Shown here: positions 7,123 to 11,704 of the stretch, in pieces
Layout: each line of letters starts with the position of its first letter
Position numbering within the stretch: position 1 is the stretch's first letter
Source: Escherichia coli
Lineage (GTDB): Bacteria; Pseudomonadota; Gammaproteobacteria; Enterobacterales; Enterobacteriaceae
Assembly: GCF_051903065.1 (NCBI RefSeq)
Contig: NZ_CP178441.1
DNA length: 42,047 nt
Direction: 5' to 3' (one strand)
Made by a program: the position numbers and the translations under genes
The notes under the pieces: generated by a model
Databases searched by the model: none
The model's input: only the letters and a program-made list of their open reading frames with translations
Told to the model about the DNA's origin: nothing

Positions 7123-7907
7123 CAGATCACCGTTGCTAAATCAAGCTGTTCGAAAATAAGGGCGCGAACCTGTTTCAGACGCTGGCGAACCATAATAGAT
7201 AATGATTTATCTTCAATGGCCTCATCGAAGGTCTTGTAGTTTTCCAGCATGTCGGCAAAGTCCTGGCCGTGTAACTCCTTTTTGAGTGTAGGCAAACGGA
7301 TAAGCGCATCAACCTTGTCTTTATTCATCAGGTACGCTTCTGATTCTTCGAATGGCACTCCCTGATCGGATTCCACCGCGCCCCAATACGGGTTAAGCCA
7401 GACAACAAAACGGGTTTCTGACGGATACTGCTCCACCATGGCCTTGAACCCCTCGACGGTGTAATCATGTGCCTGCCCCCCCACAATCGAGATATGAATG
7501 ACAAGCTGTTTACCCATTTCATAAAGCAGGGCGGGGATTTGCTGGCTAATCATATAACTTGATAACGGAATAAATGACGGAGCGCCGTTATCGATAATAA
7601 CGTCCCTATCACCGGCTTCATCAATCCACTGGATGAGGGTATCCAGTTTGCGCTGATTAATTTCATCACCTTCCATGATGTTCAGCTGTCGGACGTTCAG
7701 TTTTTCATAATTAGAGAATGTAGGATTGAGCGGATCGGTATCGATGCACAGCGGTAGCTCACCTTTGCTAATCTTGTACATTGCCACCAAAGCGGTGCTA
7801 ACGGATTTACCACAACCACCTTTTCCTTGCTGGGCGCTGTGAACAGCATGGCGTACCGGCACTGATTCAGCTTCACTCTGTTTTTTATTTTTGTCTGCAG
7901 TAGGCAT
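7122..7907 (-). CDS. traL: TraL-like P-loop protein
   Basis: Nucleotide-binding motif GKGGCGKSVSTALVA. Position between traK and traM as in RP4. Confidence 0.55.
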   Translation of the reverse strand: MPTADKNKKQSEAESVPVRHAVHSAQQGKGGCGKSVSTALVAMYKISKGELPLCIDTDPLNPTFSNYEKLNVRQLNIMEGDEINQRKLDTLIQWIDEAGDRDVIIDNGAPSFIPLSSYMISQQIPALLYEMGKQLVIHISIVGGQAHDYTVEGFKAMVEQYPSETRFVVWLNPYWGAVESDQGVPFEESEAYLMNKDKVDALIRLPTLKKELHGQDFADMLENYKTFDEAIEDKSLSIMVRQRLKQVRALIFEQLDLATVI

Positions 7908-8341
7908 TAGTTAGTCCCCTTCTTTTTTCCAGGATTAAAATTGAAAGATGGCAGCTGACTGCCGGTATTCGTAGGCGGCTCTCTTTTGACCGGCGTTCTC
8001 TCCGGGATCACTGTTTCTTTCTTCGGTGACGGACCGGTTTGTTGGCTTTCTTTCTTTACCGTAGCTCCAGCAGGTGTACTTTCGCTAACAGCAGCTGCAC
8101 GTTTTCGTTCATCTATGTATCGCCGGACATGCCGACGAAAAGTTTCGTATGTGGTATTAACACGACCAGTTTCGTGCATGTGTTCCCATATCGTAGTAAG
8201 AGAGTAACCGGCTTCAATCGCATTTCTGACGTCTTCCCGGATTGCCAGGAAGACTACCCTCCCGCTGTTTGCACTCTTGCCGTTCAGCCCCTTTTTCTGC
8301 TTAACCCACTCCTGTAGGTCAGTTAAATAGTCTTTTCCCAT
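7907..8341 (-). CDS. traK: TraK-like oriT-binding relaxosome accessory protein (ORF track start 8455 is probably an extension through the promoter repeats)
   Basis: Transcribed divergently from traJ across oriT. Internal ATG at 8341 (MGKDYLTDL...) is preceded by repeat-rich non-coding-like sequence. Confidence 0.5.
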   Translation of the reverse strand: MGKDYLTDLQEWVKQKKGLNGKSANSGRVVFLAIREDVRNAIEAGYSLTTIWEHMHETGRVNTTYETFRRHVRRYIDERKRAAAVSESTPAGATVKKESQQTGPSPKKETVIPERTPVKREPPTNTGSQLPSFNFNPGKKKGTN

Positions 8342-8354
8342 CCGATAACCTGCG

Positions 8355-8396
8355 TGTGTATTTATGAGGTATTTCTGTGTATTTACGTGTGTATTT
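8355..8396. repeat. three direct repeats of TGTGTATTT (8355..8363, 8376..8384, 8388..8396) between traK and oriT
   Basis: Read directly from the sequence. Location matches the TraK-binding/promoter region of RP4 oriT. Confidence 0.5.
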
Positions 8397-8519
8397 GAGC
8401 AGGATAACAGTTGTAAACCGCCCGGAAAACCTTGGTTTTCCGGTGTATGTGGCATAGTAACGCCGTTTTTTCGTTATATCCACAGTTTTACATCAAAAAA
8501 CACGACATTCCACTTTTCT

Positions 8520-8600
8520 TTGTGTAGACTTTCCTTGGCGTAAACACCGGCGAAAGCCGGGCAGGACATGTAAAGTAGGCCCACCGTAAACGGTGCTTCT
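8520..8600 (-). other. oriT, with nic region on the minus strand (CTTTACATGTCCTG|CCCGGCT; nick predicted between 8562 and 8561) and adjacent hairpin
   Basis: Minus-strand sequence closely matches the recalled RP4 nic region CTTCACCTATCCTG|CCCGGCT, and CCAAGGAAAGTCTACA is identical. A 5-bp stem hairpin lies at 8582..8595. Confidence 0.75.
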
Positions 8601-8688
8601 ACTTTACCTTCCCTTATTCGCAGCGGGGCTGCTCAACGGGAGTCCTGCTCTGCGAGGCTAATCGGCTACCGCCTATATGGAGATCGAG

Positions 8689-9042
8689 ATGACTGACAAT
8701 CAGACGCGGAAAAATTCCACACCGATCAAGGTTTACTGCTTCCCGGAAGAGAAGATGCAGATTGAAGCAAATGCCGCCGCTGCTGGTCTGAGTGTTGCGG
8801 CCTATTTGCGTAAAGTCGGTATGGGTTACGAAGTGGAGTCAATTGTTGATATAGAACAGGTCAAAGAGTTGAGTCGGGTTAATGGAGACTTGGGCCGACT
8901 TGGGGGGTTACTGAAGTTGTGGCTTTCCAATGACGAACGTACCCGGAATTTTTCGCCAGCGTTAATTAATACTCTGCTGGGAAAAATCGACGCCACGCAA
9001 AGCGCCCTTCGTGACGTAATGGACAGGATACTGAGTAAATGA
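8689..9042 (+). CDS. traJ: TraJ relaxosome accessory protein (ORF track start 8677)
   Basis: Strong similarity to recalled RP4 TraJ (PIKVYC..., GDLGRLGGLLKLWL). GGAG RBS before the ATG at 8689. Confidence 0.8.
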   Translation: MTDNQTRKNSTPIKVYCFPEEKMQIEANAAAAGLSVAAYLRKVGMGYEVESIVDIEQVKELSRVNGDLGRLGGLLKLWLSNDERTRNFSPALINTLLGKIDATQSALRDVMDRILSK

Positions 9043-9043
9043 T

Positions 9044-9056
9044 TTTAGCTGCTAAA
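9044..9056. promoter_or_regulatory. KorB-type operator TTTAGCTGCTAAA between traJ and traI
   Basis: 13-bp palindrome two nucleotides after the traJ stop. Confidence 0.55.
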
Positions 9057-9070
9057 ATCCGGGGGGTATT

Positions 9071-11704
9071 GTGATTTCGCGTCACATCCCAATGCGTAAT
9101 GTAAAAAAAAGCAGTTTTTTTAGACTTGCTGAATATTTACAAGATTCGCAGAACAAACAGGAACGAGTTGGCGCTGTTAAGACTACAAACTGTCATCAGG
9201 AAAATATCCTTGATGCTGCTCGTTATGAGATTGAACCAACACAACGACTAAATACGCGTGCTAAGGGGGATAAAACTTATCATTTGGTTATTTCTTTTCG
9301 GCCTGGAGAAAACCCACCACAGGAGGTTTTAGATGTAATAGAAGAACGTATGTGTACAGCGTTAGGTTATGGTGAACATCAACGTGTAAGTGCAGTTCAT
9401 TACGATACAGACAATGTACATATTCAGATCGCAATAAACAAAGTTCATCCCAAAACTCACAACATTCATACTCCTTATAACGATTATAAGATTCGGACAG
9501 CCGTATGTCAGGAACTGGAAAAAGAGTTTGGCCTCGAAAAAGACAATCACCGGGCAAGTAAGACGCGATCCGAAAATAATGCGGCAGATATGGAAAGGCA
9601 TTCCGGCAGAGAAAGTTTGCTTGGCTGGATAAAGAGGGAGTGCGCAGATCAATTAAAGAGTGCGGCTAACTGGCAAGAGTTACATAAGGCAATGCGCCAG
9701 AATGGGCTTGAGTTACGCCAGAAAGGGAATGGATTCGTTATTACTGGTCCCGATGGCCTTGCTGTAAAAGCCAGCTCTGTAGATCGCTCTCTGTCCCGAG
9801 CAGCGCTTGAAAAGAAATTAGGCTCGTTTGAGTCTTCCATACCCGACACGAAACCTTCCAGACTTTCCCCGGAAGCGATTAAACAACGATTCGGTTCAGC
9901 TGTACATGTTAAGCGGCCCGGAGAACGCCCCCCACCAATTCGTGAAAACCGACAGGTTCACCTTGGGGAGATTCCCGTTATGTCGATTAACAATGGTAAA
10001 CGCTATGAGGGCAAACCGCTGGGTTCTCAGGGTGCAAGTACCTCAGTTCTTTACGGGCGCTACCAGAGTGAACAGCAACGGCTTACTGCTGCCCGTAACG
10101 AAGCACTGCGTCTGGCAAAGGTTAAACGTGATCGCCTCATTGAAAATGCCAAAAGGACAGGCCGGTTAAAGCGGGCAGCTATCAAGTTACTGAAAGGACC
10201 AGGCGTGAATAAACGCCATTTATATGGTTTGGCAAGTAAGGCGCTTGGGGAAGAACTTGAACGGGCAAATGCCATTTATAAAAAAGACCGGCAGGCAGCT
10301 TATGACATTCATAAACGCCGTACATGGGCTGACTGGCTGCAGTTCAAAGCCGCAGGTGGTGATGATGAAGCGCTGAAAATTTTACGCCAGCGGAATGCAC
10401 AACAGGCTCGTAAAGAGGCCAACATTCTGCATGGCGATAAAGTCAAAAAAGATGGCCGTATCCCTGGATTGAAACCGGACAGTGTAACGAAGGAAGGGAC
10501 GATTATTTACCGCGTGGGAGAGAGTGCTATCCGTGACGGTGGTAAACGTCTGGATGTATCACGTGATGCTGGTGATGACGGTCTTCATGCCGCACTGCTG
10601 ATGGCTAAACACCGTTACGGAGACAAACTCACCGTTAACGGCAGTTTTGAATTTAAAAAACGCATTGTAGCTGTAGCCGCTGCGCGTGAGCTGGACGTGT
10701 CATTTACCGATCCTGAACTGGAAAAGTTGAGGCAAATTCTGGCTAAGAAAGCGGCCCGCGAGCGTGAATACATCCACATCCCCTTTGAGCAAAGAGGCAA
10801 GGCCCGACAAGCCGGGGCCATGTGGGACACCGAAAAGAAATCCTGGTTTGTCGGTCCTTACGCAACCAGAGATCGGATTGAAAACTTTATCCGAATGAAT
10901 GAGGAAAAAGACAATGAGCAAAGACGACAAAGATATGCCGGAACAGAACGAACTGAGGCAGGACGAGAACGAAGCGGCAATGGCAATGCTACTGGAGCAA
11001 ATGAACCAGGAGTTACAGGACGAAGCCCCTCCGCTGATGCCGGAAACGGATATGGAACTAGCAACAGCGGAAGACGAACTGGCTCAGGCGATGGCGTTAC
11101 TACAGCAGGAAGCCAGCCAGGAAGGAGTGATGACACCCGTACAGGGAGAAGTCGAGCAGCCGAATCAAATGGTGAACGAGGACATCGTAAGCCCAACGTT
11201 GCGCGACCTGGACGCCAGCCGCCGCCCACAGCAAAAAACCGTCTGCGAGCAATGTCCGAACTCGGTATGGTTCGCATCGCCGGAGGAAGTGAAGTGTTAC
11301 TGCCGGGTAATGTTCCTGACCAGTTGGAGCACAAAACAGCCGAACGTACTGATCAACTGCGACGGGATATGGCTGGGGCAGGAGGAATAACAACACCTGC
11401 TGAGGTTAAGAAACCGCTGAGTAGTGCTGAAAAATATATCAATGAACGTGAGCAAAAACGCCTTAAAGGGTTCGATATACCGAAACATAGAGGGTATAAT
11501 TCTACTGATAAAGGTCTGTTTGAGTATGCAGGCCAACGTAAAAGCGGGCTGGAAACGTTAGCCCTGCTAAAACGGGATGATGAAATTGTTGTGATGCCTG
11601 TCAGCGATTACACCGCCCGGAGACTGAGCAATCTTAAAGTCGGGGAGTCAGTCACACTTACCCCTTCCGGTTCAGTTAGGACAACGAAAGGAAGAAGTCG
11701 ATGA
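9071..11704 (+). CDS. traI: TraI relaxase (MOB-P type), GTG start
   Basis: N-terminus matches recalled RP4 TraI, including the catalytic Tyr region (RLAEYLQD) and the His motif HYDTDNVHIQIAINKVHP. C-terminal third is a low-complexity G/S/R-rich linker. Confidence 0.85.
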   Translation: MISRHIPMRNVKKSSFFRLAEYLQDSQNKQERVGAVKTTNCHQENILDAARYEIEPTQRLNTRAKGDKTYHLVISFRPGENPPQEVLDVIEERMCTALGYGEHQRVSAVHYDTDNVHIQIAINKVHPKTHNIHTPYNDYKIRTAVCQELEKEFGLEKDNHRASKTRSENNAADMERHSGRESLLGWIKRECADQLKSAANWQELHKAMRQNGLELRQKGNGFVITGPDGLAVKASSVDRSLSRAALEKKLGSFESSIPDTKPSRLSPEAIKQRFGSAVHVKRPGERPPPIRENRQVHLGEIPVMSINNGKRYEGKPLGSQGASTSVLYGRYQSEQQRLTAARNEALRLAKVKRDRLIENAKRTGRLKRAAIKLLKGPGVNKRHLYGLASKALGEELERANAIYKKDRQAAYDIHKRRTWADWLQFKAAGGDDEALKILRQRNAQQARKEANILHGDKVKKDGRIPGLKPDSVTKEGTIIYRVGESAIRDGGKRLDVSRDAGDDGLHAALLMAKHRYGDKLTVNGSFEFKKRIVAVAAARELDVSFTDPELEKLRQILAKKAAREREYIHIPFEQRGKARQAGAMWDTEKKSWFVGPYATRDRIENFIRMNEEKDNEQRRQRYAGTERTEAGRERSGNGNATGANEPGVTGRSPSADAGNGYGTSNSGRRTGSGDGVTTAGSQPGRSDDTRTGRSRAAESNGERGHRKPNVARPGRQPPPTAKNRLRAMSELGMVRIAGGSEVLLPGNVPDQLEHKTAERTDQLRRDMAGAGGITTPAEVKKPLSSAEKYINEREQKRLKGFDIPKHRGYNSTDKGLFEYAGQRKSGLETLALLKRDDEIVVMPVSDYTARRLSNLKVGESVTLTPSGSVRTTKGRSR
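10899..11390 (+). CDS. out-of-frame gene embedded in traI: acidic N-terminal half (TraH-like) plus Cys-rich C-terminal half
   Basis: 163-aa ORF in an alternative frame, exactly over the low-complexity linker of TraI. RP4 encodes the acidic TraH inside traI. The C-terminus CEQCPNSVWFASPEEVKCYCRV...CDG has a zinc-ribbon-like Cys pattern. Confidence 0.45.
   Translation: MRKKTMSKDDKDMPEQNELRQDENEAAMAMLLEQMNQELQDEAPPLMPETDMELATAEDELAQAMALLQQEASQEGVMTPVQGEVEQPNQMVNEDIVSPTLRDLDASRRPQQKTVCEQCPNSVWFASPEEVKCYCRVMFLTSWSTKQPNVLINCDGIWLGQEE

Follow-up and report, generated by a model that had tools for sequence, protein, structure and literature searches.

We characterized the origin of transfer (oriT) on a 42,047-nucleotide stretch of DNA from Escherichia coli (contig NZ_CP178441.1, assembly GCF_051903065.1), which we call the window. 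Positions 8342-8688, located between the genes traK and traJ, form the oriT of an IncP-1 clade II (PTU-P2) plasmid, and this oriT probably works as the oriT of plasmid RP4 does. On its nick strand it differs from RP4 at bases -11, -8 and -6, counted from the nick. As far as can be judged from sequence comparison, these bases are best explained as mostly compensatory changes in a region under constraint at two levels, as a DNA site and as an RNA structure. The kinship with RP4 follows from the agreement of four lines of evidence, namely the gene order, the sequence homology, an inverted repeat 8 nt from the nick and a match to the traJ-II family of Rfam. The same lines bear out the RP4-like oriT that the original prediction had proposed from the letters of the window.

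For the comparisons RP4 was represented by the RP4-type plasmid pSP21 (L002) and by the published RP4 oriT oligonucleotide, GGGCCTACTTCACCTATCCTGCCCGGCTGA (PMC3772185). The sequence strings on which the prediction had been based are all present where they had been placed, among them CTTTACATGTCCTGCCCGGCT on the minus strand (8575..8555) and the 16-mer CCAAGGAAAGTCTACA on the minus strand (8538..8523), which is identical in RP4. The RP4 sequence used for the prediction is correct as well: pSP21 has CTTCACCTATCCTGCCCGGCT together with the same 16-mer. Window positions 8519-8673 and the RP4-type oriT share 81.6% identity over approximately 155 bp (E = 1e-31). We furthermore aligned the traK-traJ intergenic regions of the window, two other clade II plasmids, alpha and beta plasmids, pYKBR041 and plasmids of Xanthomonas and Xylella. 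The oriT core is homologous to the oriTs of RP4, R751, Xylella and Xanthomonas, and its conservation extends from the traJ side across the nick as far as the CCAAGGAAAGTCTACA box, whereas conservation of the 180 bp on the traK side is limited to clade II.

The gene order is traM-traL-traK, the oriT intergenic region and traJ-traI-traG, which confirms the placement of the oriT between divergent traK and traJ-traI, as expected of an IncP-type (MOBP11) oriT. TraJ, TraI, TraM and TraG all pass their NCBIfam cut-offs. With RP4/RK2 (IncP-1 alpha) the window has in common the divergent traK and traJ-traI operons and a KorB operator between traJ and traI. Identical in both are TCCTG/CCCGGCT (the slash marks the nick), the CCAAGGAAAGTCTACA box and the GCGAATAAGGG and GCCTCGCAGAGCAGGA blocks, and in both the inverted repeat ends 8 nt from nic. 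The two systems differ at -6, where the window has G and RP4 has A, and in the arms of the repeat (CTTTAC/GTAAAG and 17 nt in the window, CTTCAC/GTGAAG and 19 nt in RP4). The 180 bp on the traK side of the window are unrelated in sequence to those of RP4 and contain an array of TGTGTATTT repeats. The proteins are 55% (TraI), 59% (TraJ) and 49% (TraK) identical.

By homology to RP4 the nick would fall between 8562 and 8561 on the minus strand, within CTTTACATGTCCTG/CCCGGCT (8555..8575), with the core hexamer GTCCTG at 8567..8562. A 17-nt inverted repeat (8570..8607), composed of a proximal arm at 8570-8586 and a distal arm at 8591-8607, ends 8 nt from this nick. In RP4 the inverted repeat that serves as TraJ site likewise ends 8 nt from nic (PMC7314908), from which we infer that the repeat of the window is the TraJ binding site and forms a hairpin in the transferred strand (T-strand). 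The arms covary: 83.7% of the alignment cells are paired, compared to 33-44% with slid partners, and 45 cells are changed on both sides compared to 16.6 in shuffles. Folded as DNA, the T-strand hairpin has a predicted free energy of -16 kcal/mol (z = -3.2). If the RP4 scheme applies, TraJ would bind the inverted repeat at 8570-8607, TraI would cut the minus strand between 8562 and 8561 via Tyr22, and the traK side would enter the recipient first. TraK would coat and bend the DNA between the traK promoter and traK, thereby aiding relaxosome assembly and repressing both divergent promoters.

To place the altered bases in a wider context we scanned a genome collection with the 16-mer. The scan returned mostly chance matches, and only matches accompanied by GCGAATAAGG and TCCTGCCC were retained; together with the plasmid loci the filtered cores represent 20 distinct lineages. 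Since TCCTGCCC and the 16-mer were requirements of this selection, their constancy is not independent, while -6 and its partner were left free. At -11 RP4 has C and the window T, and all three clade II sequences have T with A replacing G at the partner position of the distal arm. G-C forms this pair in 15 sequences and A-T in the 3 from clade II, such that the change at -11 would pair with the altered base of the distal arm. At -8 RP4 has C and the window A, which is also found in IncP-1 beta-type plasmids and other lineages; in the Rfam structure this base lies in an unpaired and variable linker. At -6 RP4 has A and the window G. Of the 20 lineages 18 have A at this base, the window and the pA2483imp/pKPC2 type being the only ones with G. 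Overall G at -6 (GTCCTG) is confined to two clade II sublineages and related chromosomal mobilizable islands. The change at -6 would pair with G8642, as described below. For -11 and -8 an effect on relaxase specificity, as suggested originally, is not the best reading, given the compensation in the hairpin and the A shared with IncP-1 beta.

The traJ leader matches the traJ-II motif (Rfam RF01760) at 8559..8659 on the plus strand with 97.4 bits (gathering score 40, E = 1.4e-19); 30 nt separate the end of the match from the start of traJ. It is full-length, covers model positions 1-104 and includes all three helices, i.e. an outer stem, in which 8559-8567 pairs with 8642-8650, the hairpin of the inverted repeat and, at 8620-8632, a small hairpin. 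The motif has been rated a cis-regulatory RNA of traJ leaders by Weinberg et al. 2010 (PMC2864571), and it coincides with oriT in RP4 (PMC6206304). In the outer stem GGGCAGGAC (8559-8567), the complement of the nick core, pairs with GUCCUGCUC (8642-8650). G8642 thereby pairs with C8567, which is the -6 position, 80 nt apart. The last outer-stem pair is C-G in the window compared to U-A in the Rfam consensus, which is the -6 change seen on the RNA side.

Among 37 distinct sequences the distal partner and the -6 base, both read on the nick strand, are T and A in 28 and C and G in 6. Two sequences have C and A, corresponding to a G.U wobble in the traJ-sense RNA and to a mismatch in the T-strand, and one has A and A. 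The combination T and G is found in none of the 37, i.e. the compensating C is present with every G at -6. Another outer-stem position is A.C on the nick strand in 37/37 sequences, equal to G.U in the traJ sense. The compensated G at -6, the C, A wobbles and the constant G.U together favour selection on the traJ mRNA for the outer stem. The outer stem thus favours the traJ-sense strand; counts of G.T wobbles in the inverted repeat and the small hairpin mildly favour the nick strand (16 vs 6). Flanked by the conserved CTCAACGGG and CCCTTATTCGC blocks, the small hairpin (GCAGC-ggg-GCTGC) also clearly covaries across lineages, one of its pairs being G-C in 10 sequences and A-T in 8. The nick core overlaps a compensated stem of the traJ leader, which places one stretch of DNA under constraint at both the DNA and the RNA level.

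Several points weigh against this picture of an RP4-like oriT with compensatory changes. The core GTCCTG of the window departs from ATCCTG, which is reported as required by RP4 TraI and VirD2. The compensation at -6 probably goes back to a very small number of independent events, since ancestry on the traJ side is common to the window type, type B (see below) and the islands. The mechanism ascribed here to clade II, including nick position and protein footprints, is wholly carried over from RP4, and in the literature searched we found no dissection of a clade II oriT. Finally, a consensus promoter scan of 8200-8800 returned no sigma-70-like site, for which reason the promoters are assigned by alignment only.

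By this alignment, the conserved box at 8521..8538 on the plus strand contains a probable traJ promoter -10 element, TAGACT (8525-8530), and a likely traJ start at G8538, 24 nt upstream of the nick. In RP4 traJ transcription starts at a G 24 nt upstream of nic (PMC7314908). An overlap of the box with the likely traJ -10 element would explain its conservation. On the minus strand a block at 8453..8484 aligns with the RP4 traK promoter. Its putative -10 element is TACTAT (ATAGTA on the plus strand, 8455-8460) compared to TATAAT in RP4, and TGTGGATATAACGAAAAAACG upstream of it is conserved. Just downstream of the aligned traK promoter, in the traK leader, an inverted-repeat search revealed a perfect 10-bp palindrome, CCGGAAAACC-aa-GGTTTTCCGG (8422..8443), while RP4 has a different, unrelated inverted repeat at the aligned position.

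Window-like sequences around the nick are not restricted to plasmids. In the IMG/VR contigs L140-L142 and L145 the trailing half of the oriT, up to nic+3, is almost identical to the window, and 229 of the 5,426 complete E. coli genomes contain chromosomal islands with such a half (e.g. NZ_LR134082.1 and NZ_AP027704.1). The islands examined are located at tRNA-Thr next to proA and carry traJ (73% identical), trbJ, trbL and defence genes, in L144 also an integrase gene. Neither traI nor traK was found in them. These E. coli tRNA-Thr/proA islands resemble PIME1 among the PIME-type elements, which are integrative mobilizable elements that make use of IncP plasmids (bioRxiv 10.64898/2026.01.12.698999). 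Their inverted repeat, GTCCTG core and CAGGAC partner are almost identical to those of the window, in contrast to their leading side, which is unrelated and has GTGTA units on the opposite strand and at another distance from nic. In particular, islands L140/L144 and L142/L143 have four (T)GTGTA units on the nick strand at nic+24, 35, 45 and 56, spaced by 11, 10 and 11 bp. These units (nic+24 to +60) lie at the position of the RP4 traJ promoter, and their cores are kept in two variants with differing spacers. The oriT core of L145 differs from that of L141 solely by A at -6. The clade I plasmids pB10 and pKJK5 induced, yet failed to mobilise, a PIME1 element with a 17-bp inverted repeat (bioRxiv 10.64898/2026.01.12.698999). 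The PIME1 tested there, EcRHB23-C07, sits at guaA while the islands described here sit at tRNA-Thr, and the two need not have the same oriT type. The islands also encode a 93-aa open reading frame (ORF) that by eye looks like an AlpA/excisionase-type helix-turn-helix protein; it was considered as a TraK analogue and rejected, as it has no similarity to TraK.

The traK side of the window carries a direct-repeat array (8355..8396, plus strand). Exact copies of TGTGTATTT are found at 8355-8363, 8376-8384 and 8388-8396, and a fourth, degenerate unit, GAGGTATTT, at 8366-8374. The GTATTT cores at 8358, 8369, 8379 and 8391 are spaced by 11, 10 and 12 bp. These units belong to the transcribed traK leader: they are found 14-55 bp before the traK ATG, and the aligned traK promoter is upstream of them. 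No other copy of the exact 9-mer TGTGTATTT was found in the 42 kb, and copies with one mismatch occur at chance level (14 vs 13.8 expected). Within 8342-8561 GTGTA is present five times on the array strand and not on the opposite strand, with 0.29 expected. The TGTGTATTT array was not found in the other IncP lineages compared; these have short repeats of their own at its place, such as TAGCG three times in beta-type plasmids. The traK leader of plasmid pGDZJ002-1 (L134, NZ_MH043623.1) contains a tandem duplication of 93 bp, by which the array is doubled to six exact TGTGTATTT copies.

TraK of RP4 binds a curved region of approximately 200 bp downstream of the traK promoter and represses both promoters (PMC7314908). 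The RP4 alignment places the array correspondingly, downstream of the traK promoter and on the leading side of nic. The earlier suggestion that the repeats sit where TraK binds in RP4 is hence supported by position only, i.e. by their location downstream of the aligned promoter and 14-55 bp before traK. Its four helically phased units are specific to the lineage and, as a tentative first choice, the array may be the sequence-specific part of the TraK binding region. Recognition by TraK is plausible and would be the most economical reading. In agreement with this, the array is invariant in the 12 clade II plasmids examined, in which TraK is 94-100% identical, despite diverging TraJ (71-77%) and TraI (66-88%). 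The predicted curvature is in the 93rd-97th percentile for the array and in the 93rd-99.6th for 8360-8500, while the traJ side is flat; RP4 as a control gives a similar but weaker pattern, also restricted to the traK side. Two of these observations carry a burden of their own: invariance is weak evidence of selection because the traK side is 95-100% identical across clade II, and the curvature is only moderately raised and comes from a wedge model with provisional parameters. The reading of the array as an operator for a regulator acting across the plasmid was rejected, given that the window has no further copies and that the KorB operators differ in sequence.

Alternatively, the TGTGTATTT array could have nothing to do with TraK and be an array for a host factor (e.g. 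a winged-helix response regulator binding direct repeats of 10-11 bp), a phased A/T-tract bend or an element of the traK 5' untranslated region. Direct repeats phased by 10-12 bp are typical of sites of the OmpR/PhoB family. Clade II is restricted to Enterobacterales and its transfer responds to anaerobiosis (PMC12728208), which would suit a host regulator, and the location in the transcribed traK leader would suit a leader element. A further argument comes from the islands, which lack traK and are otherwise unrelated there and yet have a similar (T)GTGTA array (11, 10, 11 bp) next to nic. The island arrays could, however, equally be mimics that recruit the TraK of a helper plasmid. Since in addition the motif is not found elsewhere in the plasmid and its position matches the TraK region of RP4, we regard a function apart from TraK as the less likely assignment, one that nevertheless retains an appreciable chance.

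The window-type oriT, defined by GTCCTG, CTTTAC arms and phased GTGTA, could mark a distinct relaxosome recognition group common to clade II plasmids and traJ-trbJ-trbL islands (~4% of complete E. coli genomes), a proposal that we consider speculative. If true, clade II plasmids like that of the window would supply the helpers that PIME1-type islands, induced but not mobilised by clade I IncP plasmids, are missing. In that case a TraK-family (DUF5338) protein would for the first time have a defined recognition motif, the GTGTA array, and the islands would have copied it as a means of recruiting TraK from the helper.

On the traJ side three types are found among eleven clade II plasmids. The window type comprises the window and ten identical records, with G at -6 and a TraI that is 100% identical to that of the window (this and the following TraI values refer to the first 300 aa). 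Type B (pA2483imp-1, pHDC161-KPC and others) also has G at -6, with a TraI 88% identical to that of the window. Type A (pHS102707, pEN3600 and mcr plasmids) has A at -6 and a TraI 66-70% identical. Clade II/PTU-P2 plasmids such as pHS102707, pMCR_1511-type plasmids, pKPC2_sg1 and pA2483imp-1 thus resemble the window in the traK side, the array and TraK but differ in TraJ and TraI within the ranges given above, and type A keeps ATCCTG. In L129 and L130 (pHDC161-KPC and pKC25-20925_40.6kb) TraK, TraL and TraM are identical to the window while TraJ and TraI are of type B, which indicates a recombination breakpoint at or near nic.

The type B plasmid pKPC2_sg1 (NZ_MN542377.1) matches the window exactly in the nick-proximal 21-mer ACTTTACATGTCCTGCCCGGC and in the array. 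It conjugates with about the efficiency of RP4 in vitro and better than RP4 does in the gut of mice (PMC12728208). As pKPC2_sg1 has the same nick region as the window and conjugates about as well as RP4, the GTCCTG core, although rare, is by analogy functional with its cognate relaxase. It does not conform fully to the nick consensus (C/T)ATCCTG(C/T) (PMC3772185): TGTCCTGC of the window agrees at 7/8 positions, the core hexamer starting with G. T-DNA borders (VirD2) and other MOBP nick regions have the TCCTG/C core in common with the window (PMC3772185) but retain A as the first base of the core and differ in context.

The relaxase of the window is itself unusual. The MOBP relaxase encoded next to the oriT has the catalytic tyrosine, Tyr22, and a histidine motif III, HYDTDNVHIQIAINK (HYDTDNVHIQ), that reads HIQ and not HIH, with Gln119 (codon 9425-9427) where RP4 has His118. 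The motif III stretch is identical in 11/11 window-type plasmids from four species, and HIH is present in every other IncP-type TraI compared, including those of clade II types A and B. The combination of GTCCTG with an HIQ relaxase provides a natural variant for testing the strictness of MOBP relaxase recognition.

These features could be taken to mean that the GTCCTG core and the CTTTAC arms define a separate relaxosome specificity, such that clade I IncP relaxases would not process the window oriT, and vice versa. RP4 TraI and VirD2 reportedly require ATCCTG in vitro (PMC3772185, a secondary statement). G at -6 occurs only where TraI is 53-63% identical to the non-clade II IncP-type TraI proteins compared (first 200 aa), and a JGI metagenome scan for C or T at -6 gave two matches, both due to chance, and no true case. 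Motif III of the relaxase fits such a scheme too, as does the failure of pB10 and pKJK5 to mobilise PIME1 with its 17-bp repeat: the islands with a window-type half also have 17-nt arms, though the PIME1 oriT need not be of the window type. Against this stands that -6 switches between A and G in the otherwise near-identical islands L141 and L145, and that type A clade II plasmids combine ATCCTG with the same CTTTAC arms. The -6 change is moreover fully accounted for by compensation in the RNA stem, and the PIME preprint suspects TraJ and the inverted repeats, not the nick core, for the failed mobilisation (bioRxiv 10.64898/2026.01.12.698999). A separate specificity therefore seems rather improbable to us. 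Specificity in IncP systems is generally attributed to TraJ and the inverted repeat, which likewise argues against a role of the nick core. What persists of the proposed effect on relaxase specificity is that -6 is the only change that touches the ATCCTG core; its compensation in the RNA stem, its compatibility with efficient transfer (pKPC2) and the A/G switch between the islands bear on how this change is read.

A second, canonical nick-core motif, TATCCTGC, is present on the nick strand at 8398..8405, 157 nt downstream of the presumed nick and adjoining the array. It belongs to GAGCAGGAT, which repeats the conserved GAGCAGGAC box (8642-8650) in inverted orientation, and is probably not the nick. 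A real nick at TATCCTG/C (8405..8398, same strand), with GTCCTG as a degenerate relic, would agree with the perfect 8/8 match to (C/T)ATCCTG(C/T) inside the oriT that all clade II plasmids examined have kept, yet is highly improbable since no inverted repeat ends 8 nt upstream of it, it does not align with the mapped RP4 nick, the GTCCTG site is the one in a block conserved across all lineages together with a covarying repeat, and the 7-mer ATCCTGC has nine copies on both strands of the window, so that one copy here is only mildly unexpected.

The plasmid that carries this oriT has close relatives. Over 8200-8800 the window is 100% identical to pCFSA664-2 and to ten more 41-43 kb plasmids, the hosts being E. 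coli, E. fergusonii, Salmonella and Shigella, and approximately 100 further plasmids are 92-95% identical. pCFSA664-2 has been assigned to IncP/P-1 "clade II", which is confined to Enterobacteriaceae (PMC9499019) and was later renamed PTU-P2 (PMC12728208). Judged by its backbone, i.e. the near-identity to these references and a network of KorB operators, the window is an IncP-1 clade II (PTU-P2) plasmid of Enterobacteriaceae. The element is of a known kind and of modest novelty. Its plasmid family had been sequenced and classified before, and its core falls into a curated family of Rfam. Clade II IncP plasmids bear the resistance genes KPC, IMP, mcr-1 and mcr-3 and spread efficiently in the gut. 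A defined nick with its accessory sites would help to predict which plasmids and chromosomal islands they mobilise.

The genes that flank the oriT are readily assigned. traK (7907..8341, minus strand) encodes a relaxosome accessory protein of 144 aa that matches Pfam DUF5338 (E = 1.5e-23) and is annotated as "TraK family protein" in pCFSA664-2. Its identity to the TraK of the RP4 type is 49% across the first 76 aa, whereas within clade II it reaches 94-100%. traJ (8689..9042, plus strand) encodes an oriT-binding protein of 117 aa with 169.5 bits to the NCBIfam TraJ equivalog NF010451 (cut-off 134) and a NikA-like Pfam match. traI (9071..11704, plus strand) encodes the MOBP relaxase of 877 aa, with 525 bits to NCBIfam TraI_MobP_relax (cut-off 250). 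Between traJ and traI lies the KorB operator TTTAGCTGCTAAA (9044..9056, plus strand), at the position of OB4 in RP4 (PMC7314908). Allowing at most one mismatch to TTTAGCSGCTAAA, the window contains 12 KorB operators compared to 0.06 expected.

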